Shown here: in pieces, positions 667-22,062 of the stretch | Layout: every line of letters begins with the position of its first letter | Position numbering within the stretch: the first letter of the stretch is position 1 | Source: a virus | Taxonomy: Duplodnaviria; Heunggongvirae; Uroviricota; Caudoviricetes | DNA: 64,000 bases | Reading direction: 5' to 3' (one strand) | IMG/VR virus record: IMGVR_UViG_3300008113_000307 | Location: 21,919-85,918 of that record | Notes under the pieces: generated by a model | The model's input: only the letters and a program-made list of their open reading frames with translations | What the model was told of the DNA's origin: nothing | The model's database searches: none | Position numbers and translations under genes: made by a program

Positions 667-741
667 GGAGCGTTCGTCTATCGGTTAGGACATCAGGTTT
701 TCATCCTGAGAAGAGGGGTTCGACTCCCCTACGCTCTTCCA
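667..741 (+). tRNA. tRNA-Glu(TTC)
   Basis: Cloverleaf folded by hand: acceptor ggagcgt/acgctct, anticodon loop ttTTCat, T-loop ttcgact, encoded CCA. Confidence 0.65.
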
Positions 742-1244: not shown

Positions 1245-1320
1245 GGTCTTAAAGTGTTCATGGACGCACGACGGCTTGTCACGCCGTAAGAGTGGGGATC
1301 GTTACCCCCTAAGACCGCCA
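1245..1320 (+). tRNA. tRNA-Asp(GTC), non-canonical T-loop ATCGTTA
   Basis: Acceptor ggtctta/taagacc, anticodon stem acggc/gccgt with loop ttGTCac, CCA; T-loop gggg-atcgtta-cccc. Confidence 0.55.
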
Positions 1321-1328
1321 AGTTTAAT

Positions 1329-1403
1329 GGGCTGTTAGTGATAATGGTAGCACGGGGCCTTTGCAAGGCTTAGGTGGGAGTTCGATCCTCCCACGGTCCA
1401 CCA
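1329..1403 (+). tRNA. tRNA-Ala(TGC)
   Basis: Acceptor gggctgt/acggtcc (G3:U70 present), anticodon loop ttTGCaa, T-loop ttcgatc, CCA. Confidence 0.65.
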
Positions 1404-1410
1404 AGTTTAT

Positions 1411-1490
1411 GTGCGTTTGGTCTAAATGTTAGGGCGTCATGACAGGGGGCTAATAACCTCAAGATGCGGGTTCGAATCCCGTAACGCACA
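1411..1490 (+). tRNA. tRNA, anticodon unresolved (possibly AAT)
   Basis: Acceptor gtgcgtt/aacgcac and canonical T-arm gcggg-ttcgaat-cccgt; central region has an extra gtcatgac hairpin; 3' end is ccg rather than CCA. Confidence 0.4.
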
Positions 1491-1496
1491 CCGTTT

Positions 1497-1573
1497 TGCA
1501 GCAATGGAGGGGTAGGGGGCATGTCCTCCGCATTCTAGATTCCCGCAGTGGTTCGAGTCCACTGGCTGCACCA
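1497..1573 (+). tRNA. tRNA-like element without a canonical anticodon arm
   Basis: Acceptor tgcagca/ggctgca 6/7, T-arm agtgg-ttcgagt-ccact, 5-bp ggagg/cctcc hairpin with 14-nt loop; contains ttCTAga but no flanking stem. Confidence 0.3.
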
Positions 1574-2030
1574 AGTTTTGCTTAGTTAGTATCAGAAAGT
1601 GTGTTTAATTGGGGCAACGAACTTTTACTCTGCCCGAGGAGTGGTATCGTAAAGATATATGGACCACCTTTACACAGTGCAATCAAGTTTTGTTAGTATA
1701 TGATAGAGTAATGTTCCAGGGTGTGGATTCCCTACTATCTTGTGGATAAGCCCGTTCGAATCGGGTCAATAGAGAACATTCTAACAGATCAAGTTTTGTA
1801 GCGTCGGCAAGAGAAAGGCACACTGGCAAGATTCTTCGAAGATCAAGTCAGTGTAGAGCAGAAGGGGGTTCGACTCCCCGCCATTCGGAAGAATGGTAGC
1901 TGTAGTGGTAGCGTCTGGTCGAGTATCCCAAGCGACATGTCCTGGAAAACCTCGACGTTAGGAAAGTCCGGCTCTGAACGTCTAAACACCAGCAATAAAC
2001 CTGAGGATGCTGGGCTACAAATTCAACATC

Positions 2031-2105
2031 GGGGGCAGCAGAGGGCTGCGGTGTTCGCTGGCAGCGATCATGTCTAGAGGGGTTCGATACCCCCGGTCTC
2101 CACCA
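2031..2105 (+). tRNA. tRNA-like element with Ala-type acceptor (G3:U70), no anticodon arm
   Basis: Acceptor gggggca/ggtctcc + A + CCA, T-arm gggg-ttcgata-cccc, two short hairpins in place of D/anticodon arms. Confidence 0.35.
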
Positions 2106-2110
2106 AATAC

Positions 2111-2185
2111 ATCGCATTGGACTTCAGGTGAGGTCATCACCCTTTCAAGGTGACTAGACGGGATCGTTACCCGTATGCGATACCA
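2111..2185 (+). tRNA. tRNA-Glu(TTC) variant, T-loop ATCGTTA, A1:U72
   Basis: Acceptor atcgcat/atgcgat, D-stem gact/ggtc, anticodon stem tcacc/ggtga with loop ctTTCaa, CCA. Confidence 0.55.
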
Positions 2186-2239
2186 TTCTTGAAAATAATC
2201 GAACCTAGCTAAATACTCTTATAAACATAAGGGTTCGAT

Positions 2240-2740
2240 ATGACAAAAGTTTGTCCAAAATGTAATTCAGAGCATCATAAAAATGGCACATTTTGCAGTA
2301 GAAAATGTGCCAACAGTAGAACATTCAGTGAAGAATCTAAGATTAAAAAATCTTTAGCAAGTAAAAAACATTATCAATCACTTAGTGAAGATGATAAAAA
2401 TAAAATTAACAAACGTCTCAAAGAGTTGTCCATTAACACTCAGGGGTATCGATTAGAACTTTTGCTCTCAAAAGAGTTTTCAACCTTAGCGTATCAGAGC
2501 AAGAGAAAGCGAGTTTTGATAGAACAAGAATTTAAATGCAAAAAATGCAATATAGATACTTGGTTTGGTAAACCATTGACTCTAGAATTGGAGCATATCG
2601 ATGGCAATCATCAAAATGATATTAGGTCAAATTTAATAGCATTGTGTCCAAACTGCCATAGTTTAACTGAAACATGGAGGGGACGCAATAGAAAGAACAA
2701 ATTACCCCCAGTAGCTCAAGGAGAGCAGGTCGTTTTATAA
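2240..2740 (+). CDS. HNH homing endonuclease
   Basis: N-terminal Cys-rich region and HNH motif EHIDGNHQND...NLIALCPNCHS; low GC; inserted among tRNA genes. Confidence 0.8.
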   Translation: MTKVCPKCNSEHHKNGTFCSRKCANSRTFSEESKIKKSLASKKHYQSLSEDDKNKINKRLKELSINTQGYRLELLLSKEFSTLAYQSKRKRVLIEQEFKCKKCNIDTWFGKPLTLELEHIDGNHQNDIRSNLIALCPNCHSLTETWRGRNRKNKLPPVAQGEQVVL

Positions 2741-2794
2741 GCGATTAATCTAGATAAGGTCCAGGATGAGGTTCGATTCCTCACTGGGGGACCA
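2705..2794 (+). tRNA. tRNA, long variable region, anticodon probably TAT
   Basis: Acceptor cccccag/ctggggg perfect, D-stem gctc/gagc, anticodon stem gtcgt/gcgat with loop ttTATaa, T-loop ttcgatt, CCA; 5' end overlaps last 36 nt of HNH gene. Confidence 0.4.
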
Positions 2795-3253
2795 AGAAAC
2801 TTCATCTGGGTTCAATTCCCGGCGGGGGTACCAAGTTAAACAAGTCAGGTGTGAACAAGAGGTTGATCACCAGCCCAGCTGCCAGGGACTACTATCGATC
2901 CACATCTCTGATCGGATGGAAACATCGCGACAACTGCTGATCACAGTTACTCATGTCAGTGGAAGGAAGTCTCGGCTTTGTGCCGACAGTACCTTTAAAC
3001 GCAAGGCAGTGCCTGACTTGTTTATCCAAAATCAGTTGACACTTATTCCAGAGTCAGCTACAATACACACATGCCAACTAATACTTGGTATTAGTGAACT
3101 CATTACGTGCACCATTCTGCGGGCTCTCAGGATTGCAAGATCCCGTATCCCAAGGTTGTCAGCGGGTAGACATGGAAGTCGCTGTGCTCCGAGCACAGAA
3201 AGACGCCGTGGTAGTGAGGTCACTAATACAAAGAATTTTGGCAACATTGACAG

Positions 3254-3282
3254 TTGACATGATTCACTGTTGATGTTACAAT
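3254..3282 (+). promoter_or_regulatory. sigma70-like promoter
   Basis: TTGACA-17-TACAAT; downstream region has no convincing ORF. Confidence 0.45.
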
Positions 3283-3791
3283 AAAGATTACAGGGCAGCG
3301 TAATGTCCTGTACAGTTGGGTTCGCCCAGCTGTGCAAAAGATAACTGTGGTGACACAGCCAAAGGAGGTATGCCTACATAACTCCGCCAGCAAAGGTCTG
3401 GTTACGCAAGCCTGCTCACTAGGGTGACCTAGCGATCACTGATAAGACCGGTGGTTGTAACAACGACGCTGGATGTTGTGGAAAGAACGTTTGCCGACAA
3501 GCCTGAGATTGTATCAAGGGGAACTTGGGTAGATGGAAAGTAACAGGTGGTGCTGACTTCACAACTAAACCAGTCCAGTTAGTTAGTATGAGAAAGGGTA
3601 GTGTACATGTCCGAGGGGTTGCACCCAAGGGCTAGTATGCAGTTTGAGTGGTAGGTGGGACTGTCAGCAATGGCGGGGTCACACTGATCGCAAAAGACGA
3701 CTGAGTAGCTCGCAAGGCCAAAGGTACGTGGTGTGTTGTATTGGGTAGAGCAAAACTTTATTCAGCAACTGTGTCAGCACATCGCAGTAGG

Positions 3792-3864
3792 TTCAGTTAT
3801 AGCACAATGGTAGTGCATCTCCCTGTTAAGGAGACGGCTGAAGGTTCAACTCCTTCTAACGTTT
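3792..3864 (+). tRNA. tRNA-Asn(GTT), acceptor pairing imperfect
   Basis: D-arm gcac-aatggta-gtgc, anticodon stem tctcc/ggaga with loop ctGTTaa, T-arm gaagg-ttcaact-ccttc. Confidence 0.4.
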
Positions 3865-4128
3865 AAAAAGCAAAGACTGACACGGCGGTATGTGAAAAGC
3901 ATCTAATACTTGACACGCAAGTGAATCAAGTCCAACGTAGCTCGCAAGGTGAAATTGGTTTATGCAGGAAGTTTCGTAAGGTGTTAGCGCACTTGAATGG
4001 CTAGGTGCTGTTAGGTAAGCATGTAATCTCAGTGCTCCACTATTCTAAAACACATTACCCCCGTAAAACGGTCTATACTAGTCACTAACCGAGTTGTTGT
4101 GTAGTGTGTTTCAGAATGGTAAATATAT

Positions 4129-4202
4129 CGCGGGTAGGGTGGCCACCACACCGGTCTCATAAGCCAGGTGCATCGGCAGTTCGAATCTGTCACCCGCATC
4201 CA
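4129..4202 (+). tRNA. tRNA-Met(CAT), initiator-like (C1-A72 mismatch)
   Basis: Acceptor cgcgggt/acccgca with 1-72 mismatch, anticodon loop ctCATaa, T-arm ggcag-ttcgaat-ctgtc, CCA. Confidence 0.5.
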
Positions 4203-4248
4203 GTTTTTTGGCGTGTTGTATAAATACAACATAAAATTTTTCACTTGG

Positions 4249-4277
4249 TTGACAACATCGACTAAGTACAGTACAAT
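4249..4277 (+). promoter_or_regulatory. sigma70-like promoter of a short transcription unit
   Basis: TTGACA-17-TACAAT; ATG 4285 and terminator at 4443-4475. Confidence 0.5.
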
Positions 4278-4442
4278 AGGACACATGATGAAACAACAAT
4301 TCTGTTCACAGCTGACCAAACCCACAATGCTCCAGACATCCGTCTGGTCGCACGGTTTTGGCCGCGTGAATAGTATTCCAGGCATCAGGGTCCACGAAGG
4401 TTGGGACGATTAACAAGTCGTAACACACACAAACTTCAAAGA

Positions 4443-4475
4443 CCCTGGAACTCAAAACTCCAGGGTTTTTCTTTT
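4443..4475 (+). terminator. Rho-independent terminator
   Basis: ccctgga-actcaaaact-tccaggg stem-loop followed by tttttctttt. Confidence 0.7.
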
Positions 4476-4685
4476 AGTGCAAGGCAACGCGAGCCGGCAA
4501 CACTCAAAACTGCAAATGAGGGCGTCCTCGGGGATGAGAAGCACTTCTTGTAGTGTGTGAAAAAACCGAGCGTATCGAAGAGGATTGTTCTCTTAACTGA
4601 GCATCCGCGGAGAGGAACTAATATTATGTTCGACTGACTCAACAGTCTTCTTCGATACCTGCATTGGCAACAGTGCAGTAAATTT

Positions 4686-4759
4686 ACCCGCATAGCTCAA
4701 AGGTAGAGCACACGCTTGATAAGCGTTAGACCAAGGATCGTTACCTTGTGTGGGTACCA
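4686..4759 (+). tRNA. tRNA-Ile(GAT), T-loop ATCGTTA
   Basis: Acceptor acccgca/tgtgggt, anticodon loop ttGATaa, CCA. Confidence 0.55.
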
Positions 4760-4765
4760 AATTTT

Positions 4766-4840
4766 ATCTCTCTGGTGTAATGGCAGCACATCGGCCTCCA
4801 AAGCCGTAAGGTCAGGGTTCGAGTCCTTGGGGGGATGCCA
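4766..4840 (+). tRNA. tRNA-Trp(CCA)
   Basis: Acceptor atctctc/gggggat (GU pairs), anticodon stem cggc/gccg with loop ctCCAaa, T-loop ttcgagt, G discriminator, CCA. Confidence 0.65.
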
Positions 4841-4848
4841 ATTTTTGT

Positions 4849-4922
4849 TCGGGAATTGTGTAATGGTAGCACAACAGACTTTGACTCTGTTAGCCTAGGT
4901 TCGATCCCTAGTTCCCGTGCCA
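4849..4922 (+). tRNA. tRNA-Gln(TTG)
   Basis: Anticodon stem acaga/tctgt with loop ctTTGac, T-arm ctagg-ttcgatc-cctag, G discriminator, CCA. Confidence 0.55.
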
Positions 4923-4932
4923 GTTTTTGTAT

Positions 4933-5011
4933 TCCACAGAACCCGAGCGTGGTGCATGGGCCGGACTGTTAATCCGTGGTTAGCTGGGATCGTCACCCAG
5001 ATGTGGAGCCA
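4933..5011 (+). tRNA. tRNA-Asn(GTT) variant, T-loop ATCGTCA
   Basis: Acceptor tccacag/atgtgga, anticodon loop ctGTTaa resembling E. coli tRNA-Asn, CCA. Confidence 0.5.
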
Positions 5012-5017
5012 AGTTTT

Positions 5018-5093
5018 CTCCGTATAGCGTAATCTGGTAGCGTTCCTGGTTTGGGGCCAGGAGGTTGGGGTTCAAATCCTCATATGGAGACCA
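5018..5093 (+). tRNA. tRNA-Pro(TGG)
   Basis: Acceptor ctccgta/tatggag, anticodon stem tcctgg/ccagga with loop ttTGGgg, T-loop ttcaaat, CCA. Confidence 0.6.
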
Positions 5094-5101
5094 AAAATTT
5101 G

Positions 5102-5130
5102 TTGACAGTAACCGCTGTTGACTATATAAT
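5102..5130 (+). promoter_or_regulatory. sigma70 consensus promoter
   Basis: TTGACA-17-TATAAT immediately upstream of tRNA-Asn. Confidence 0.6.
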
Positions 5131-5148
5131 ACAAACAACAAAGTATGT

Positions 5149-5223
5149 TCCTCAGTAGCTCAGCGGTAGAGCAATCGGCTGTTAACCGATCGGTCATTGG
5201 TTCGATCCCAGTCTGAGGAGCCA
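5149..5223 (+). tRNA. tRNA-Asn(GTT)
   Basis: Acceptor tcctcag/ctgagga perfect, anticodon loop ctGTTaa, near-identical in outline to E. coli tRNA-Asn, CCA. Confidence 0.8.
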
Positions 5224-5281
5224 AAATAAAAAGCGGATGACCTTTCTGCTCTTTTGTATAAATAAAACAAAGGAGCATGAT

Positions 5282-5671
5282 ATGAATGTGAATCAAAAAG
5301 GAAACATTGGCTTATTAAAAGTTATTAGTGATTTGTATAACAAAGGTTTTACAGCGTTTAAACCGTTTGATGACTACAATCCAGTGGATTTGATTGCTAT
5401 GGAATCGTCTGGAAAAACGTTTAGACTACAAGTAAAATATCGTAGTATGGATCCTAAAAGAAAAAGATATGAAATTTCTGCACAATCTATAGTTAATAGC
5501 AAAGCTGTGCCAATAGATAGAAATCTAATAGATTTTTGGGCAGTATATTTGGCAGATCTAGATCAAGTGGTCTATATGCCGGTTAGTATTATGGAGGGCA
5601 AAGGAGTCCACTATATTACTGAGAGACAATTAGGTGAGATGGATGAGAGGTTGAAATCGGCACCCTGCTAA
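5282..5671 (+). CDS. PD-(D/E)XK family nuclease (Hjc/Holliday-junction-resolvase-like)
   Basis: RBS aaaggag then ATG; motif GNIGLLKVISDLYNKGF...PVDLIAME...RLQVK matches the D-x-E-x-K restriction-endonuclease fold; low GC; 3' end overlaps tRNA-Ser. Confidence 0.5.
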   Translation: MNVNQKGNIGLLKVISDLYNKGFTAFKPFDDYNPVDLIAMESSGKTFRLQVKYRSMDPKRKRYEISAQSIVNSKAVPIDRNLIDFWAVYLADLDQVVYMPVSIMEGKGVHYITERQLGEMDERLKSAPC

Positions 5672-5724
5672 GGTGTTTTCTTGGGAAACCAGGGACGTGG
5701 GTTCGAATCCCACTTTCACCACCA
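5633..5724 (+). tRNA. tRNA-Ser(GCT), type II
   Basis: Acceptor ggtgaga/tttcacc, anticodon loop ctGCTaa, long variable arm cttgg-gaaa-ccagg, T-loop ttcgaat, CCA. Confidence 0.6.
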
Positions 5725-5753
5725 ATTTAGAGTTTAGCAAACTCAAACAATTC

Positions 5754-5827
5754 GCCCTGTTAGTTAAGTGGCATAACGCCTGTTTTGTAATCAGGAGTTG
5801 GCAGTTCGATTCTGTCACGGGGCACCA
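5754..5827 (+). tRNA. tRNA-Thr(TGT)
   Basis: Acceptor gccctgt/acggggc, D-arm gtta-agtggca-taac, anticodon loop ttTGTaa, CCA. Confidence 0.55.
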
Positions 5828-5835
5828 ATTAAAAT

Positions 5836-5911
5836 GCGGGTGTAGCTCAGTTGGTAGAGCACTTCCTTGCCAAGGAAGATGTCAGGAGTTCGAGCCTCCT
5901 TACCCGCTCCA
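5836..5911 (+). tRNA. tRNA-Gly(GCC)
   Basis: Acceptor gcgggtg/tacccgc, anticodon stem cttcc/ggaag with loop ttGCCaa, T-loop ttcgagc, CCA. Confidence 0.7.
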
Positions 5912-6009
5912 ATTTTTGTAGAGATGCAAGTGCCAAACTGAGCGCATGCTCACCGGTGCATCCCGGCTATGCCTAGATATTGGCTCTGGGCTTACTACAT
6001 TTTTCTTTT

Positions 6010-6083
6010 GCTCTTGTAGTTAAGTGGTATAACGAATCCATGGTAAGGATTAATCGACAGTTCGATTCTGTACTTGAGCACCA
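6010..6083 (+). tRNA. tRNA-Thr(GGT), acceptor has 2 mismatches
   Basis: D-arm gtta-agtggta-taac, anticodon stem aatcc/ggatt with loop atGGTaa, CCA. Confidence 0.45.
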
Positions 6084-6137
6084 CCCAACCGGCCCATACC
6101 ATCCCTTGACGAGCAGGTCCCTGGGCTTTGTTTTCGC

Positions 6138-6213
6138 GCCGCGGTAGCTCATCAGGTAGAGCAGCAGACTGAAAATCTGTGTGTGGCTGGTTCGAGTCCA
6201 GCTCGTGGCACCA
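6138..6213 (+). tRNA. tRNA-Phe(GAA)
   Basis: Acceptor gccgcgg/tcgtggc, anticodon stem gcaga/tctgt with loop ctGAAaa, T-loop ttcgagt, CCA. Confidence 0.7.
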
Positions 6214-6219
6214 TCTAAT

Positions 6220-6297
6220 GCGTCTTTAGCTCAGTTGGAATAGAGCACTGGTTTACGAAACCGGGGGTCGGGAGTTCGAGTCTCTCAGGACGCACCA
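6220..6297 (+). tRNA. tRNA-Arg(ACG)
   Basis: Acceptor gcgtctt/aggacgc, anticodon stem ctggt/accgg with loop ttACGaa, CCA. Confidence 0.7.
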
Positions 6298-6302
6298 CAC
6301 AG

Positions 6303-6331
6303 TTGACAACAATTGCAGATTGTTGTATAAT
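6303..6331 (+). promoter_or_regulatory. sigma70 consensus promoter
   Basis: TTGACA-17-TATAAT upstream of the second tRNA sub-cluster. Confidence 0.6.
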
Positions 6332-6443
6332 TAAGACTTAAACAAAAAGGTTACACTATGAAACGCTCAGGCAAACCCTAGTGTCATCCTGGTCCCCCGT
6401 ATGGTCCTGGATGGCACGTAAAAGACAATCTATTACGATCCAT

Positions 6444-6518
6444 CCATGCTAAACTTTGCTGGCGAAGTACCCGGCTCTTACCCGGACAAACTGAGTTCGA
6501 TTCTCAGAGCATGGACCA
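6444..6518 (+). tRNA. tRNA-Lys(CTT)
   Basis: Acceptor ccatgct/agcatgg perfect, D-stem actt/aagt, anticodon stem ccgg/ccgg with loop ctCTTac, T-loop ttcgatt, CCA. Confidence 0.5.
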
Positions 6519-6521
6519 TAT

Positions 6522-6596
6522 GGGGGCATAACTTAACGGCTAAAGTAGTCGGCTTTTAACCGACCTATCAGAGTTCAATTCTCTGTGCCCCTACCA
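6522..6596 (+). tRNA. tRNA-Lys(TTT)
   Basis: Acceptor gggggca/tgcccct, anticodon stem gtcgg/ccgac with loop ctTTTaa, T-loop ttcaatt, CCA. Confidence 0.7.
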
Positions 6597-6668
6597 TATG
6601 CAAACACATTAACAGCGTCGTGCCGGTCGCCGGACTTAGGTTGAATTCCTAATAGTGTGTTTACATAT

Positions 6669-6743
6669 GGTGTCGTTAGTTTAGTGGCAAAACCGCGGAT
6701 TGTGATTCCGCTATCATGAGTTCAATTCTCATACGATACCCCA
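6669..6743 (+). tRNA. tRNA-His(GTG) with extra 5' G(-1)
   Basis: Extra 5' g, acceptor gtgtcgt/acgatac, anticodon stem gcgga/tccgc with loop ttGTGat, C discriminator, CCA. Confidence 0.7.
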
Positions 6744-6789
6744 CATACCAAAATTACATAAGTTAGACTTAATCTACATAATTAATAAT

Positions 6790-7833
6790 ATGACAAATCA
6801 GTATAGTGACGTTCTCAATACTCATAAAATCATGTTCAACGATTCTATTAGAAATAATTTTTACAAAAAAATTTTAACTGGTTGCGTTGAGAACAAGCAC
6901 TGCGTAGAAGTGGGGTTTGGTACTGGCATTTTATCTGTTATTGCATGTGATCTTGGTGCAAAACATGTGATTGCATATGAGCACAATCTCGACACATACA
7001 ACTTTGGTCAGGAAATGATCAAAACTTTAAACTTGACCGACAGAATTTTATTGCTTAATGAAACATTTGAACCTTCCAAACTATCACAACATCATAAGAT
7101 AGATGTAATGTTTTCTGAAACAGTTGATAATGCGTTATGGGGGGAAGGTTGGTATCTCAATACATTTATTGATGACCCAAACATAAACATACTGCCCAAC
7201 AAATATTTTTTCGAATCTTTTTGTATTGAAGTCGAAGATAATTATGCTCAAGGGCTACTAATGGGTCCTGAACACTTGTGTAATCCAGGCATACCCATCA
7301 ATCATCAATTTGTTGATTTTATTAATCAACATCTCACATCTGGTGGTAGTAAAGATACGGTTGTATCTAAAATTGACGAGTATTACACTAATAAAATAGT
7401 TGACATAAGTTTGGCCAATCAAGGTACTTTTTGGGGATGGCACACCCAACTAATGGAAGCGTTTGATATTAGACAGAAAGTTGCCGATTTTCAATATGCA
7501 TTAGACCTTAACAAAAAAAACATAATTTTAACAGACAAATATAAAACAACTATAAAAAAAATAAACCCAGATTTATCGTCGATAGAATTTCAACTAAAAA
7601 TGGAAAATCCCGATTCTAATTATCTAATATTTTTTAGAGTAGGATTAGAATCCGGCAACGAAAAATTTTATTTAGATAGCGGACATTTTGGACCTTTCAG
7701 TTCAGCGTTTTTACTGAGAAGTTCTTCTAAAAATAAAATAGTAAATCTTTCACATAATTTGTTCGATGGCGGAATAACTGCTGAATACAATAAAAAAATT
7801 ATCAAAAAAGTTGCTTCGGATAATTGGGCATGA
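6790..7833 (+). CDS. Class I SAM-dependent methyltransferase, PRMT-like
   Basis: NDSIRNNFYKKIL, motif I VEVGFGTGILS, and IDVMFSETVDNALWGEGW resemble type I protein arginine methyltransferases; strongly AT-rich. Confidence 0.55.
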   Translation: MTNQYSDVLNTHKIMFNDSIRNNFYKKILTGCVENKHCVEVGFGTGILSVIACDLGAKHVIAYEHNLDTYNFGQEMIKTLNLTDRILLLNETFEPSKLSQHHKIDVMFSETVDNALWGEGWYLNTFIDDPNINILPNKYFFESFCIEVEDNYAQGLLMGPEHLCNPGIPINHQFVDFINQHLTSGGSKDTVVSKIDEYYTNKIVDISLANQGTFWGWHTQLMEAFDIRQKVADFQYALDLNKKNIILTDKYKTTIKKINPDLSSIEFQLKMENPDSNYLIFFRVGLESGNEKFYLDSGHFGPFSSAFLLRSSSKNKIVNLSHNLFDGGITAEYNKKIIKKVASDNWA

Positions 7834-7872
7834 CCTATTGCAACAATTAGGTTGGCCTTTCAACATAGACAT

Positions 7873-7947
7873 GGAAGTATAGCACAGCGGTAGTGCAGCA
7901 CCTTCATACGGTGTTGGTCAGTAGTTCGAATCTACTTACTTCCACCA
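7873..7947 (+). tRNA. tRNA-Met(CAT) (elongator Met or Ile2 precursor)
   Basis: Acceptor ggaagta/tacttcc perfect, anticodon stem gcacc/ggtgt with loop ttCATac, T-loop ttcgaat, CCA. Confidence 0.65.
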
Positions 7948-7948
7948 T

Positions 7949-8023
7949 GGGCCTTTGGTGAAATGGATATCATGCTGGTCTTCGAAACCAGCGGTGGGAG
8001 TTCGATCCTCTCAGGGCCCGCCA
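7949..8023 (+). tRNA. tRNA-Arg(TCG)
   Basis: Acceptor gggcctt/agggccc, anticodon stem ctggt/accag with loop ctTCGaa, CCA. Confidence 0.6.
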
Positions 8024-8201
8024 GTTATAACGATGCAATGAATCGCCTGGCTGATTCAGCGTCAACAAAATAGAACATGCGCAGGCTGTCGTCGTAAATA
8101 TCATTGACAATGATGTAGCCTGTGTTGTCGTTGCTCATGCTGAGATGGATTTGAATTCCGTCTGCGGTGAGAGTGTCGTAGATGTACATAAGTTTATTTA
8201 A

Positions 8202-8275
8202 GCGGGTAAGCTCAAGGTGAGACGTCAGCCTTCCAAGCTGCACTGAGTGGGGTTCGACTCCCCCTACCCGCTCCA
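8202..8275 (+). tRNA. tRNA-Gly(TCC)
   Basis: Acceptor gcgggta/tacccgc, anticodon stem cagc/gctg with loop ctTCCaa, T-loop ttcgact, CCA. Confidence 0.65.
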
Positions 8276-8281
8276 GTTTTT

Positions 8282-8355
8282 CTCGGTATGGTGAAATGGT
8301 ATCACTCGACGTTTGGGACGTTGGAGCGTAGGTTCGATTCCTGCTACCGAGACCA
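8282..8355 (+). tRNA. tRNA-Pro(TGG), second copy
   Basis: Acceptor ctcggta/taccgag perfect, D-stem gtga/tcac, anticodon stem cgacg/cgttg with loop ttTGGga, CCA. Confidence 0.55.
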
Positions 8356-8362
8356 TGACAAT

Positions 8363-8439
8363 GCACAGGTGGCGGAGTGGCCCAACGCAAGGGATTGCAA
8401 ATCCCTAAAACCGTGAGTTCAAATCTCACCCTGTGCTCC
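8363..8439 (+). tRNA. tRNA-Cys(GCA)
   Basis: Acceptor gcacagg/cctgtgc perfect, anticodon stem aggga/tccct with loop ttGCAaa, T-loop ttcaaat, CCA. Confidence 0.7.
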
Positions 8440-8445
8440 AGATAC

Positions 8446-8537
8446 GGAAAGTAATGCAGCGGGGATGGTCCTGCGACTGGCCTTGAAAACCAGGTTCTCT
8501 TAACAGGGATGGGGTTCGACTCCTCTGCTTTCCGCCA
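8446..8537 (+). tRNA. tRNA-Ser(TGA), type II
   Basis: Acceptor ggaaagt/gctttcc, anticodon loop ctTGAaa (reads UCA), long variable arm, T-loop ttcgact, CCA. Confidence 0.6.
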
Positions 8538-8557
8538 TAAGTACAGCAAAGGAGATC

Positions 8558-8728
8558 ATGATGACAAGATCAGCAATTTTTCAAAACAAAATTACTCGGG
8601 AACGCCTGATCTGCGACAACGTGGATCTTGTGCGTTGGTTTGATGGTGCGGCCTTTTTGTCAGTTCGGCGAGAAGGAACTGAACGACGTTTCCTAATTCG
8701 TCGCGATGCACTGCAAGAAATAGTATAA
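8558..8728 (+). CDS. Hypothetical small protein (56 aa)
   Basis: Strong RBS aaaggag 6 nt upstream of ATG; between tRNA-Ser and tRNA-Val. Confidence 0.5.
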   Translation: MMTRSAIFQNKITRERLICDNVDLVRWFDGAAFLSVRREGTERRFLIRRDALQEIV

Positions 8729-8737
8729 TTGACACAT

Positions 8738-8812
8738 GCCTGGTTAGCTCAGGGGGAGAGCGCTTCGTTTACACCGAAGATGTCCGCGGTTCGAAACCGT
8801 GACCAGGTACCA
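8738..8812 (+). tRNA. tRNA-Val(TAC)
   Basis: Acceptor gcctggt/accaggt, anticodon stem cttcg/cgaag with loop ttTACac, T-loop ttcgaaa, CCA. Confidence 0.65.
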
Positions 8813-8818
8813 AACATA

Positions 8819-8893
8819 GTCTCTGTAGTTCAATGGATAGAACAAGTTCCTCCTAAGAATTAGATATCAGTTCAATTCTGGTCAGAGACGCCA
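8819..8893 (+). tRNA. tRNA-Arg(CCT)
   Basis: Acceptor gtctctg/cagagac perfect, anticodon stem agttc/gaatt with loop ctCCTaa, T-loop ttcaatt, CCA. Confidence 0.6.
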
Positions 8894-8933
8894 ATCTTGC
8901 GATAGTGGTGGCATCAATAATTTTATTTTTACT

Positions 8934-9782
8934 GTGATTAATTATTTTACCGATAATCTCCTATTTGCATATTATCCACAGGGCGCTGGGGGGAAATTTT
9001 TACTTAACTGCATTGGATTAAGTGATCATTCCGTATTACAATCTAGAGCACTAGTGGTAAAACAACTTGAAAATAATTTTAATCAAGACCAAAAATTTAA
9101 TTGGTTACTGGAAAAAATTAAATATGCTAAAAAAAGAAAACACTGGAATGATCTGGACCTTGGTTGTACTGAATTGTTTGGACAGGAAGATCAACCATAT
9201 TATCCAGAAATAGACATACTATCTAACTCACATTTAATTTTTTCCAAAGTAGCACACAGTTATAATGTGTTGCTAGACGCAACTAACACTTGGCCCAATG
9301 CAAAAATTTTGCAACTAGAAAATTGTCATAACTTTATTTCAGCATATAGATCTCATACTTTGTCCAATCCAGCAGCCCCCGAACCTGATATTTTGTCATT
9401 AGTTTGGAAAAATATTAGAGATCAATCATGGCCAGTTAATCATCCCACTACGCTAGAAGAATACAATCAATTAGATATTAAAATTCGTAATGAAGATCAA
9501 TACATGCATAATCATTCAATTTTACAAGAGATTATTAAATGCAAACAACTGAATTATCGGCTATTGCAAAATATCAACGTTATTAAATGGGACTGTGATT
9601 GGTTTTTTGATTGTGATGTTTGTGTTGATCAATTAAGTACAGTATATCAAAAACTTTGTTTACCTGACTTCGATCGAAAAAAAATTAAAGCCTATTTTTT
9701 AGCCTGGATAGACTGTCTAGATACTATAGACAAAGATCAAAAGAAAAATCTCAGAAGCAATAAAAGCCAAATGGGAAGATAG
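8934..9782 (+). CDS. Hypothetical protein (282 aa), AT-rich
   Basis: Long low-GC ORF embedded in tRNA array; GTG start; no family recognised. Confidence 0.5.
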   Translation: MINYFTDNLLFAYYPQGAGGKFLLNCIGLSDHSVLQSRALVVKQLENNFNQDQKFNWLLEKIKYAKKRKHWNDLDLGCTELFGQEDQPYYPEIDILSNSHLIFSKVAHSYNVLLDATNTWPNAKILQLENCHNFISAYRSHTLSNPAAPEPDILSLVWKNIRDQSWPVNHPTTLEEYNQLDIKIRNEDQYMHNHSILQEIIKCKQLNYRLLQNINVIKWDCDWFFDCDVCVDQLSTVYQKLCLPDFDRKKIKAYFLAWIDCLDTIDKDQKKNLRSNKSQMGR

Positions 9783-9788
9783 AAAAAT

Positions 9789-9873
9789 GCGGATGTGGCG
9801 TAATTGGTAGCCGCACCAGATTTAGGTTCTGGCGTTGAAAGGCGTGGGGGTTCGAGTCCCTTCATCCGCACCA
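9789..9873 (+). tRNA. tRNA-Leu(TAG), type II
   Basis: Acceptor gcggatg/catccgc perfect, anticodon stem ccaga/tctgg with loop ttTAGgt (reads CUA), long variable arm, CCA. Confidence 0.65.
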
Positions 9874-9921
9874 AGACTCTCCCTGACACACGGAGTATAA
9901 TAGGACAAGTAGTGTGTTTCC

Positions 9922-9995
9922 AGGTCATTAGCTCAAAGGTAGAGCGGTGCATTGACATTGCACATACAGCGGATCGTTACCGTTATGACCTACCA
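9922..9995 (+). tRNA. tRNA-Val(GAC), T-loop ATCGTTA
   Basis: Acceptor aggtcat/atgacct perfect, D-arm gctc-aaaggta-gagc, anticodon stem gtgca/tgcac with loop ttGACat, CCA. Confidence 0.55.
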
Positions 9996-10080: not shown

Positions 10081-10085
10081 TTTTT

Positions 10086-10157
10086 AGCGTCACTCTGGCT
10101 GATCTAACTGGGGTCCAATCCCGGTAGTCAAAGGTTCGATTCCTGCAGGCGCTGCCA
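10086..10157 (+). tRNA. Short tRNA-like element with Trp anticodon CCA and reduced D-arm
   Basis: Acceptor 6/7, anticodon stem ctggg/cccgg with loop gtCCAat, T-loop ttcgatt, CCA; only 69 nt before CCA. Confidence 0.35.
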
Positions 10158-10603: not shown

Positions 10604-11008
10604 ATGCTGGATAGATTGTTTACAGGTCTTGAAGATATACAAACAAAAACTTGCGGAATGTGTTTGAAAACTCTACCGCTAACTATGTTCGGTAACGACG
10701 GCGGCGCAAAATATCTTAGATATGAGTGCAAGACATGTGCAAAAGCTCAAAGCAAATTGTTAAAAACAATTAAAAAATCTGCACCAGCAATTCCTAAAGA
10801 TTACAAGTGTCCAATTTGCAAGCGTAATGAGCAAGAAGCTAAAGGACATAATCCCAACAAAAAAGGAATTTGGTGTGCCGACCACAATCATGCATCGGGT
10901 AAATTTAGAGGTTGGCTATGTCACAAATGCAATTTAGGATTAGGCAATATGAACGATGACATAGATAGATTAGAAGCTGCTATCAAATATTTAAAGGAGA
11001 AACCATGA
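10604..11008 (+). CDS. Recombination endonuclease VII family protein
   Basis: Cys clusters plus [25 protein letters not shown]...LEAAIKYL match the T4 endo VII signature. Confidence 0.75.
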
Positions 11009-11676
11009 AACGTGTGATTGAAATTCGTGCTGCCGAAGGCGGCGAAGACTCTAAGTTGTTTGTGCAAGATCTTGCACAGGCCTACATCAAGTTTGCTCAC
11101 AGCAAAGGCTGAGCTGCCCGCCTGACAAATCAGATGGCCGGCGAGCAGCATGTGTTGGTCGAAGGCGGTGATTTATCAGGCTTGACGAACGAAGCAGGAG
11201 GGCATCGTATTCAACGAGTGCCGCCTACCGAACGCAAAGGCCGTGTGCATACCAGCACAGTGACAGTGGCCATAGTTGACCCCCGAACCATTGCTACCAC
11301 CATTCGAGAGAGTGATCTCTATGTAGAGTGGTATTCAGGTACAGGTGCTGGAGGGCAGTATCGCAACAAGCATCAAAACTCATGTAGAATCACACATGTG
11401 CCCACCGGCATCACTGCCAAGTCTGAGTGCCGAAGCCGAGCCAACAGTTTGGCTGAAGCTACCCAGGCCATACAGCAACGAGTTGACCACGTGCTACAAA
11501 GTCGCTATAATAGTGCAGTGGCACAGGATCGACGTTCACAAGTGGGCACTGGCCAGCGAGGAGACAAAATACGCACCTATAGATTTCAAGACGATGTCAC
11601 ACAAGACCATGTGACTGGACAACGTGCCAGCACACGACGAGTGTTACAGGGAAACTTTGATCTCTTGTGGAACTGA
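11005..11676 (+). CDS. Truncated class I release factor (RF1-like, domains 2-4) interrupted by an in-frame TGA at 11110-11112
   Basis: ATGA overlap with upstream gene; [34 protein letters not shown] aligns with RF1 VRAGTGGDEAALFAGDL..ARRW; downstream [12 protein letters not shown] (PxT motif), SGTGAGGQ and [13 protein letters not shown] match RF1 domains 3-4. Confidence 0.8.
11113..11149 (+). promoter_or_regulatory. Stable hairpin directly 3' of the in-frame TGA (candidate recoding/readthrough stimulator)
   Basis: gctgcccgcc pairs with ggcgagcagc (9 of 10 bp) around a 17-nt loop, starting at the first nucleotide after the stop codon. Confidence 0.55.
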
Positions 11677-11905: not shown

Positions 11906-12376
11906 ATGAAGCAAATCAATCTAGACGAAGTCACACAGTTTATCCAGGCACAGACACCAGAAACCAAGATCTATCTTGGTTGCGACTCGGAACGCCTGCG
12001 AGTGGACGGTGACTGGTACGCGGATTACGTGCTGGCCATTGTGGTTCACATCAACGGCAACAATGGCTGCAAACTGTTTGGCGAAGTGCATCGGGAACGT
12101 GTATGGGATGCCAAGCCCAGCAAGCCCAGCATGAGGCTCATGACCGAAGTGTACAAGGTTTCCGAACTGTACTTGAAGTTGGCCGAAGTGCTGGAAGGCA
12201 GGCATGTGGAAGTGCATTTGGACATCAACCCCAACGAAATGCACGGCAGCTCATGCGTGATCAGCCAGGCCATAGGCTACATCAAGGGCACCTGCAACGT
12301 GGTGCCATTTGTGAAACCTGAAGCTTTTGCTGCCAGTTACGCCGCAGACCGATTCAAAGGCCTGCGAGTAGCATAA
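11906..12376 (+). CDS. YkuK/DUF458-like RNase H-fold protein
   Basis: IYLGCDSE, VLAIVVH, EVHLDINPNE, GYIKG..VKPEAFAASYAADRF follow the conserved blocks of the B. subtilis YkuK family. Confidence 0.55.
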   Translation: MKQINLDEVTQFIQAQTPETKIYLGCDSERLRVDGDWYADYVLAIVVHINGNNGCKLFGEVHRERVWDAKPSKPSMRLMTEVYKVSELYLKLAEVLEGRHVEVHLDINPNEMHGSSCVISQAIGYIKGTCNVVPFVKPEAFAASYAADRFKGLRVA

Positions 12377-21789: not shown

Positions 21790-22062
21790 ATGAACGTGCA
21801 AGAAATCAACCGTGCTATCGTCTCCGGCCATCTTACCAATGCTGATCTCAACAGTGTGATTGACGCTGTGAAGTTTGCTCGTGCTCGGCTTACACGACAA
21901 AACAAGGCCAGTCTCATGCTGGGCGATACGGTGCAGTTTACCAGCACACGAACTGGCCGAACCATGCAGGGCACAGTTCGAAAGATTGCCATCAAGTTTG
22001 TCACAGTCAACACCCCCACAGGCCTGTGGAAAGTTCCAGCCAGCATGCTGACTGCAGTTTAA
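21790..22062 (+). CDS. Hypothetical protein (90 aa)
   Basis: Start at cassette ATG. Confidence 0.5.
   Translation: MNVQEINRAIVSGHLTNADLNSVIDAVKFARARLTRQNKASLMLGDTVQFTSTRTGRTMQGTVRKIAIKFVTVNTPTGLWKVPASMLTAV

Follow-up and report, generated by a model that had tools for sequence, protein, structure and literature searches.

Can the base pair that closes the T loop of transfer RNAs (tRNAs) be turned round in a working tRNA, and what would a phage gain by it? Few features of tRNAs are as conserved as the reverse-Hoogsteen pair U54·A58, and the question is raised by five genes in a 64,000-nucleotide stretch of phage DNA (the window; positions 21,919 to 85,918 of IMG/VR virus record IMGVR_UViG_3300008113_000307, class Caudoviricetes), the first 12 kb of which carry a dense tRNA array of phage type on the + strand. 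ARAGORN called 31 tRNAs in the window, 27 of which have TTCRANN T loops throughout. A first-pass annotation had noted that the T loops of five tRNA genes read ATCGTYA, had taken this as an inversion of the 54·58 pair, and had described two of the five, Glu and Asn, as duplicates of canonical tRNAs in the same array. The genes concerned are the following.

1245..1320, + strand: tRNA-Asp(GTC), called by ARAGORN; T arm TGGGG-ATCGTTA-CCCCC; A8/U14/C21 replace U8/A14/A21.
1298..1304, + strand: variant T loop of this tRNA-Asp, A54 U55 C56 G57 U58 U59 A60.
2111..2185, + strand: tRNA-Glu(TTC), the second Glu-TTC copy of the window, called by ARAGORN; T arm ACGGG-ATCGTTA-CCCGT.
2163..2169, + strand: variant T loop of this tRNA-Glu, AUCGUUA.
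4686..4759, + strand: tRNA-Ile(GAT), called by ARAGORN; T arm CAAGG-ATCGTTA-CCTTG; 7-nucleotide D loop AAAGGTA; 4-nucleotide variable loop AGAC.
4737..4743, + strand: variant T loop of tRNA-Ile, AUCGUUA.
4933..5011, + strand: atypical tRNA-Asn(GTT)-like gene; T arm CTGGG-ATCGTCA-CCCAG; A8/A9; 11-nucleotide D loop.
4989..4995, + strand: variant T loop of the Asn-like gene, AUCGUCA.
9922..9995, + strand: tRNA-Val(GAC), called by ARAGORN; T arm AGCGG-ATCGTTA-CCGTT.
9973..9979, + strand: variant T loop of tRNA-Val, AUCGUUA.
667..741, + strand: canonical tRNA-Glu(TTC), loop TTCGACT, duplicated by the variant tRNA-Glu.
5149..5223, + strand: canonical tRNA-Asn(GTT), loop TTCGATC, duplicated by the Asn-like gene.

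The motif GATCGTYAC occurs five times in the 64 kb (1297, 2162, 4736, 4988 and 9972, all on the + strand), compared with a mean of 0.70 in shuffled sequences, none of which reached five; every match spans G53 to C61 of a tRNA-like gene. The loop is ATCGTTA in four genes and ATCGTCA in the Asn-like gene. All five have A54 and U58 in place of the canonical U54·A58 pair, retain U55, C56, G57, G53 and C61, encode CCA, and hold a GG doublet (G18 G19) in the D loop. Both loop sequences combine A54 with a purine at position 60 (A60); the A58 of initiator-type loops is absent, position 58 being U in all five. The shared loop and the two duplications reported by the first-pass annotation were thus confirmed. 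An alternative fold with a canonical loop elsewhere in these genes, which the annotation had named as a finding that would overturn it, was not supported, since inspection of the five sequences revealed neither TTCGA nor TTCAA at any other place. Chance or mis-folding was rejected, as the count is above that of all shuffles, the five sites are in register and no other canonical TTCRA box is present.

Minimum-free-energy folding gave a cloverleaf for 5/5 genes and placed the variant loop in the T arm each time. Compared with shuffled sequences, the Glu gene was more stable (z = -2.6) and the Asn-like gene was no more stable than shuffles (z = -0.04). ARAGORN called 4/5 genes and missed the Asn-like one. 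The Rfam tRNA model RF00005 (gathering threshold 29 bits) scored 57.7 bits for Ile and 56.2 bits for Val; the Asp, Glu and Asn-like genes gave no match to it, even at E<=10 in small windows. The D arms of Asp and Glu are unusual, and positions 8 and 14 of Asp are A and U. The five genes had been described as otherwise well-folded and recommended for covariance-model scoring: a cloverleaf was found for all of them, and the description is fully valid for Ile and Val only, the two that the model recognizes.

Stem covariation was measured on 38 distinct 74-nucleotide Ile, Thr and Val tRNAs with non-U54 loops (34 A54·U58 and 4 A54·A58), taken from the window and other phage contigs. In this alignment 96.2% of stem cells were paired and 17/21 pairs were changed on both sides; the covariation score was 0.93, compared with 0.23 in shuffles (0/500 reached the observed value) and at most 0.16 with slid partners. 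G18 and G19 were each conserved in at least 90% of these homologues. Relatives of individual genes were also found. First, genes identical or nearly identical to the tRNA-Asp recur in related phage contigs, and the substitutions among them affect both sides of the acceptor stem and of the anticodon stem. Second, homologues of the variant tRNA-Glu with the same loop are present in five loci (L255, L036, L057, L062 and L010). Third, an annotated tRNA-Ile with the same loop in Xanthomonas phage X1 shares 87% identity with the tRNA-Ile of the window.

The Asn-like gene has counterparts, 94–95% identical and unannotated, in 24 Acinetobacter T4-like phage records. Its family (n=8) has TTCGATT, TCCGATT, ATCGTTA or ATCGTCA loops, has substitutions on either side of both the acceptor and the anticodon stem, conserves the mismatches G7·A66 and C27·U43, and includes one member (L296, loop TTCGATT) that ARAGORN calls tRNA-Asn. 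The marks of a pseudogene, namely stem changes left uncompensated and decay of the anticodon loop or 3' end, were not found in the five genes. As far as sequence can show, these genes are conserved, structurally constrained tRNAs, and they are very probably functional ones that carry a compensated T-loop inversion.

The variant is far broader than the five genes of the window. For a sample unselected on the loop, 80 related loci were picked via a neighbouring gene and added to the window, giving 81 loci with 1511 good tRNAs, in which the 54·58 states were distributed as follows.

U·A: 1383/1511 tRNAs.
A·U: 91/1511 tRNAs.
A·A: 20/1511 tRNAs.
G·G (Phe, loop GTCGGAA): 16/1511 tRNAs.
C·A: 1/1511 tRNAs.
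U·U: 0/1511 tRNAs.

At least one tRNA without U54 was present in 65/81 loci, with 0–5 such tRNAs per locus for a median of 21 tRNAs; 26/38 Asp tRNAs were A·U. The G54·G58 loop GTCGGAA was seen in Phe-GAA tRNAs of 15 related loci, and A54·A58 loops (ATCGATA, ATCGAAA) in Val, Thr, Met, Glu and His tRNAs. In some related loci the loops AGCGTTA and AGCGTAA lack U55 as well. The loci with these deviant loops include L248, L258, L273 and L003.

A second census was made by scanning viral contigs with the pattern GGATCGTTACC-N11-CCA, which yielded at least 120 loci, to which locus L001 of Acinetobacter phage KARL-1 was added (121 loci). Among the matches listed and L001, an A54/U58 tRNA was held by 82/121 loci, and the 54·58 states in this pattern-selected set were U·A in 1085, A·U in 122 (one of them from L001), A·A in 24, C·A in 11 and U·U in 0 tRNAs. 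Over the two censuses A54·U58 was found in Asp, Ile, Thr, Lys, Val, Phe, His, Met, Glu, Gly, Ala, Asn and Tyr tRNAs, with single cases of Ser and Gln-CUG; it was never found in Arg, Leu, Pro, Gln-UUG, Cys or Trp tRNAs. The same pattern scan of one genome per prokaryotic species listed 120 matches, of which 3 fell in tRNAs; each of the three belongs to a metagenome-assembled genome and lies on a contig with a dense tRNA array (4 tRNAs in 4.3 kb; 20 and 18 tRNAs in 8 kb). In this small sample, among the matches listed, A54·U58 is close to absent from cellular genomes.

Cultured phages carry the variant too. In Xanthomonas phage X1 it was found in an unannotated Lys-UUU (L122, 494-567) and in Ile-GAU, together with ATCGAAA and ATCGATA loops; in Ralstonia phage RSP15 in an unannotated Asp (L123, 6001-6076) and in Asn (ATCGTAC); and in KARL-1 in the Asn-like gene, unannotated as well (L001, 4004-4083), and in Ser (ATCGTTC). 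The variant Asn-like gene is unannotated in all 24 Acinetobacter phage records. If these genes are tRNAs as predicted, standard annotation overlooks them, as it does in RSP15, X1 and these 24 records, and phage tRNA repertoires are under-counted. Some of the unannotated stretches in X1, RSP15 and Acinetobacter phage records carry a hypothetical-protein annotation. Phage T5 was considered as a well-studied precedent and rejected: in the tRNA region scanned, 22/22 correctly registered ARAGORN tRNAs have U54·A58 loops, and its T loops are canonical only.

The two censuses together contain 213 tRNAs with U58, and position 54 was A each time and U never. In a mutual-information scan of 170 distinct tRNAs of identical length and register, position 58 was the highest partner of position 54 (0.549 of 0.672 bits; Fisher p = 2e-28 for the 54/58 table), followed by position 60 (0.524) and then by a D-loop position adjoining G18, position 46 and the 52-62 pair. 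The inversion of the 54-58 pair, as first proposed from the five genes, is therefore genuine: U58 occurs only with A54.

Other positions change with it. Among 50 distinct A·U tRNAs of the set unselected on the loop, G52-C62 was present in 49/50 (compared with 55% of canonical tRNAs) and A60 in 38/50 (compared with 3%); G57 was present in 50/50, U59 in 42/50, U55 in 49/50, C56 in 50/50, and a 4-nucleotide variable loop in 36/50. The variant is thus a coordinated module, GG-AUCGUUA-CC, which retains the nucleotides that contact G18 and G19 at the elbow (U55 and C56). The combination A8/U14 was found in 16/50 distinct A54·U58 tRNAs compared with 17/833 canonical ones, mainly in Asp-GTC, Lys-CTT and Lys-TTT (related loci L244-L323). 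In the window, the second universal reverse-Hoogsteen pair, U8·A14, appears to be inverted to A8/U14, with C21 or G21 for A21, in the tRNA-Asp at 1245-1320 and in a tRNA-Lys(CTT) at 6444-6518.

Three alleles were found in the Val-GAC lineage of the window gene: UUCGAUA (L272), AUCGAUA (L246 and L247) and AUCGUUA. The Val tRNAs of L246 and L247 are the window tRNA-Val except for A58, and A58 versions (ATCGATA) are present among relatives in L246, L247 and L252. The series shows a stepwise path that leads from U·A via A·A to A·U, with A60 present from the start. Close pairs of alleles were also observed in other isoacceptors: Phe tRNAs of L287 and L315 show 5 differences overall, with positions 54 and 58 among them, and Thr-GGU alleles are 94% identical outside the loop. 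Gly-GCC tRNAs have TTCGACC or ATCGTAC loops, Asn tRNAs TTCGAGC or ATCGTGC, and Ile tRNAs TTCGATC or ATCGTTC; these Gly, Asn and Ile switches keep C60 and so have separate origins, which excludes a single ancestry. The suggestion that the five loops descend from a common ancestor was accordingly abandoned, as switches recurred in different isoacceptors and loop backgrounds and near-identical canonical relatives persist. A crude count by parsimony on trees built with the unweighted pair group method with arithmetic mean gave 107 changes; it is an over-estimate, because trees from 70-nucleotide sequences are poorly resolved.

A U54·A58 copy of the same anticodon was present in only 9/128 combinations of locus and anticodon with a non-U54 tRNA in related phages. 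Therefore variant tRNAs replace the canonical gene instead of backing it up, the Glu and Asn genes of the window being exceptions, and a general role as back-up duplicates was rejected. No association of variant tRNAs with the open reading frames (ORFs) of the arrays (methyltransferase-like, HNH, PD-(D/E)XK, EndoVII, release-factor fragment, AhpC and others) was found across the 81 loci.

Why, then, has the pair been inverted? The explanation that we favour, and to which we give a probability of about 45%, is that working tRNAs carry a compensated inversion whose benefit would be escape from factors that depend on U54. The pair U54·A58 is inverted to A54·U58 within a recurrently evolved T-arm module, G52 G53 - A54 U55 C56 G57 U58 U59 A60 - C61 C62, by many independent switches and by way of an A54·A58 intermediate; U58, A60 and G52-C62 would be compensatory changes that restore T-loop stability. 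The shape of the tRNA would be preserved for the ribosome, EF-Tu and the synthetases, and host factors that need U54 would lose their substrate. Because the variant tRNAs lack U54, 5-methyluridine at this position (m5U54) is impossible and the UUC (T-Psi-C) motif is not displayed. The likeliest factors to be escaped would be nucleases that cut the T loop, acting in defence or as toxins and resembling either Schlafen/Cash enzymes or CdiA-CT E479.

Prokaryotic Schlafen (Cash) nucleases of type III CRISPR systems, among them CbCash, cut tRNAs mainly in the T loop at UUC, and a single substitution of U54 or U55 abolishes cleavage by CbCash; whether phage tRNAs are targets was left open by the authors (PMC13462974, 2026). 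The toxin CdiA-CT E479 cuts the T loop between the conserved T and pseudouridine (PMC9086364). The U54 that CbCash needs (PMC13462974) is replaced in all five genes of the window, which is consistent with escape and no more than that. Nuclease escape would be expected to leave such a trace: U54 exchanged for a purine, and a matching change at position 58 by which the two still pair. Escape from U54-dependent factors as the selective reason is nevertheless put forward tentatively, at less than even odds. The wider idea that phages repeatedly invert reverse-Hoogsteen pairs (U54·A58 to A54·U58, and some U8·A14 to A8·U14) as a shape-preserving disguise from enzymes that read U54 or U8, with the tRNA still active on the ribosome, is doubtful; the enzymes evaded would include Schlafen/Cash-type T-loop nucleases, toxin tRNases, and the enzymes for m5U54 and for 4-thiouridine at position 8 (s4U8).

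Several points weigh against escape. Only 0–5 of a median of 21 tRNAs per locus are altered, and Arg, Leu, Pro, Gln-UUG, Cys and Trp tRNAs are never A·U; CbCash cleaves 28 E. coli tRNAs, and a few resistant tRNAs fit so broad a nuclease poorly. The inversion of U8·A14 in Asp and Lys tRNAs is not explained by a T-loop nuclease. Finally, A:U is absent from the pairs listed at 54·58 in a survey of RNA structures (PMC2615604). The small number of altered tRNAs, the spared isoacceptors and the U8·A14 inversion favour instead a nearly neutral compensatory drift.

Such drift would follow from fast evolution of phage tRNAs under relaxed constraint, and the inversion would then have no function of its own. 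Backgrounds with G52-C62, G57 and A60 would tolerate A54·A58, and A54·U58 would lie one step further, with a fitness close to that of U54·A58. That cells lack it would be due to purifying selection, stronger in them than in phages, perhaps because they depend on TrmA or TruB. Drift agrees with the stepwise UUCGAUA, AUCGAUA, AUCGUUA series in one lineage, the canonical member of which already has A60, and with the tolerance of A·A, G·G and C·A in the same arrays, which match pairs listed for RNA structures (PMC2615604). It also agrees with the inversion of U8·A14, with the few tRNAs affected per phage and their patchy distribution among isoacceptors, and with other T-loop deviations in phage tRNAs at about 1%. 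However, A·U (91) is well above the presumed intermediate A·A (20) and is by far the commonest deviant loop, and the burst of changes is limited to positions 52-62 in tRNAs that are otherwise 91–96% identical. The presence of the variant in 26/38 Asp tRNAs and its near absence from the sampled cellular genomes, among the matches listed, also argue against drift, which we regard as a serious possibility that is somewhat improbable as the whole account.

The altered T loop might also mark a subset of tRNAs and be read by some factor, of phage or host, that is not a nuclease; the mark could consist in the lack of m5U54 and of 1-methyladenosine at position 58 (m1A58), an altered handling by EF-Tu, the ribosome or the CCA enzyme, or the sparing of these tRNAs in a phage attack on host tRNAs. 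The isoacceptor pattern is restricted and reproducible in the two censuses (Asp, Ile-GAU, Thr-GGU, Lys, Val-GAC, Phe and others), the module covaries with one D-loop and one variable-loop position, and the closest known A54 loops are also limited to particular tRNA species (PMC7566577). On the other hand, no array gene co-occurs with variant tRNAs, and most tRNAs of the same phage are canonical, which would leave a mark of self against host incomplete. We consider such a mark improbable.

Selection might instead act on the DNA, if the GGTTCGA box were a homing-endonuclease target and the inverted loop a cleavage-resistant allele that still gives a functional RNA. The array does contain HNH-like, PD-(D/E)XK and EndoVII ORFs, an HNH-like ORF lies 55 bp downstream of the variant tRNA-Glu (2111..2185), and the changes are clustered at positions 52-62; a weak hint is that a non-U54 tRNA is among the two nearest tRNAs in 5/11 loci with HNH homologues. 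However, non-U54 tRNAs are not enriched beside ORF-sized gaps (odds ratio 0.89, p = 0.57), the nuclease ORFs of the window are unassociated with variants across the 81 loci, and the neighbours of most variant tRNAs are other tRNAs, which makes this account very improbable. Least probable by far are decayed or decoy tRNA-like sequences unused in translation, a reading suggested by the failure of Asp, Glu and Asn-like in the Rfam tRNA model (and of Asn-like in ARAGORN) and by the redundancy of Glu and Asn with canonical copies in the window, but contradicted by strong compensatory stem covariation, intact anticodon loops, CCA ends and G18 G19, the 94–95% conservation of the Asn-like gene between unrelated phages, and the fact that a variant tRNA is usually the sole copy of its anticodon in the locus.

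The array in which the five genes lie is interrupted by small AT-rich ORFs, including HNH-like, PD-(D/E)XK and EndoVII nucleases, and Rfam detected in the window the end of a permuted transfer-messenger RNA (tmRNA), a GOLLD-like RNA and several tRNA-like elements beyond those of ARAGORN. These and the genes that follow the array are listed here.

1-105, + strand: 3' part of a permuted tmRNA (RF04321, 48.3 bits, just over the gathering score of 47), truncated where the window begins.
1411-1490: tRNA-like element (RF00005, 46.8 bits) with a 13-nucleotide insert in the D loop.
3728-4035, + strand: GOLLD-like RNA (RF02032, 102.9 bits, under the gathering score of 150).
3796-3860: tRNA-like module inside the GOLLD-like RNA (RF00005, 57.9 bits, model positions 4-67).
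8202-8272: tRNA-like element (30.7 bits).
8446-8533: tRNA-Sec-like element (36 bits), with 88% identity to a stretch of Pseudomonas phage PHB09 that carries no annotation.
2240-2740, 5237-5671, 6790-7833, 8934-9782 and 10604-11008: AT-rich ORFs between tRNAs.
11007-11676, + strand: release-factor-like gene with RF-1 and PCRF domains; the frame is broken by TGA near 11112.
11906-12376, + strand: RNaseH_like (PF04308/DUF458) gene, which flanks the tRNA array.

The tRNA-like elements without an ARAGORN call lie at 1404-2110, 8202-8272, 8446-8533 and 10085-10150, and isolated T arms were seen near 1547, 1750, 1866 and 2085. Upstream of the GOLLD-like RNA, a structured-looking non-coding stretch (2800-3700) might be the remainder of that RNA. 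The inserted AT-rich ORFs are of HNH-like, PD-(D/E)XK, EndoVII and S-adenosylmethionine (SAM)-methyltransferase-like types (the last a weak PrmA match), with in addition a 282-amino-acid protein of unknown function; each is found in just 1–11 of the 81 related loci, so that they are sporadic mobile insertions. The release-factor-like gene could be either a truncated gene or one with an RF2-type frameshift site. The product of the RNaseH_like gene is a candidate tRNA-processing factor; relatives of the gene number 434 among viral contigs and 76 among cultured large phages, and in Xanthomonas phage X1 the gene is located inside the array (L122, 4439-4912). The 434 IMG/VR relatives of this array-flanking gene lie on contigs of up to 364 kb, and the window therefore belongs to a large uncultured jumbo-phage family. 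No closely related cultured phage was found, the best protein identity being 59%.

If these tRNAs work as predicted, the T-loop closing pair is invertible in nature, and the UUCGAUA, AUCGAUA, AUCGUUA allelic series offers one tRNA in which this is ready for study. Escape of phage tRNAs from the newly described T-loop nucleases would become directly testable, and the variants would provide natural scaffolds that lack U54, and hence m5U54, for orthogonal translation. Were the disguise reading true, phages would have a previously unrecognized class of counter-defence, one that works by way of the tertiary structure of tRNAs, and the first natural A·U T-loop closing pair.

How do these tRNAs compare with known ones? 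The T loop of eukaryotic initiator tRNAs, AUCGAAA, is matched by the ATCGAAA of some phage tRNAs in the present loci. T loops with A54·A58 and a purine at position 60 are known from eukaryotic initiator tRNA-Met and metazoan AGC-tRNA-Ala (Basavappa and Sigler 1991; Westhof et al. 2020, PMC7566577); pairs of the A54·A58 type were reported as not observed in bacterial or archaeal tRNAs (PMC7566577), and a review of T-loop modification names A54 of the eukaryotic initiator as the exception to U54 (PMC7912444). The initiator and Ala loops and the phage loops have in common A54 for U54, a purine at position 60, the retention of U55, C56 and G53-C61, and the restriction to particular tRNA species. 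They differ in that position 58 of the phage loops is U instead of A or m1A, which gives an inverted and not a purine-purine pair, and in that the phage variant is carried by elongator tRNAs of many specificities, with no link to R15/A48 in the phage data. A survey of T-loop/UA_handle motifs in RNA structures found U:A in 92% of cases and otherwise C:A, A:A, G:A, C:C and G:G, with no A:U (Jaeger et al. 2009, PMC2615604). Its minor pairs C:A, A:A and G:G are minor variants of the phage arrays too, whereas A:U, which it does not list, is the commonest variant there.

A second comparison is with phage tRNAs that counter defence. Tyr and Lys tRNAs of phage T5 counter Retron-Eco7 and PARIS, respectively, and mycobacteriophages have anticodon-loop variants. 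The tRNA targets of the PARIS and Retron-Eco7 nucleases are described in PMC13462974. In each of these cases a single isoacceptor is altered in its anticodon loop with respect to a single, defined nuclease, whereas the variants described here lie in the T loop and concern many isoacceptors. The cut site of CbCash is immediately 5' of U55 (PMC13462974), and the review on CdiA-CT E479 numbers the conserved T-Psi step T55, Psi56 (PMC9086364). Both enzymes cut at the T-Psi step, and A54 removes the CbCash determinant; they are candidate selective agents and not relatives of the variant tRNAs. No prior description of A54-U58 or of phage T-loop variants was found in the open-access literature, and an older one may exist. 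What the phage tRNAs that counter defence and those described here share is that a phage tRNA deviates from the host consensus exactly where defence nucleases read it and remains competent for translation, as is predicted here. In conclusion, the genes described here appear to belong to a known kind, tRNAs with a non-canonical T loop, and to add to it a variant in which the T-loop closing pair is inverted.

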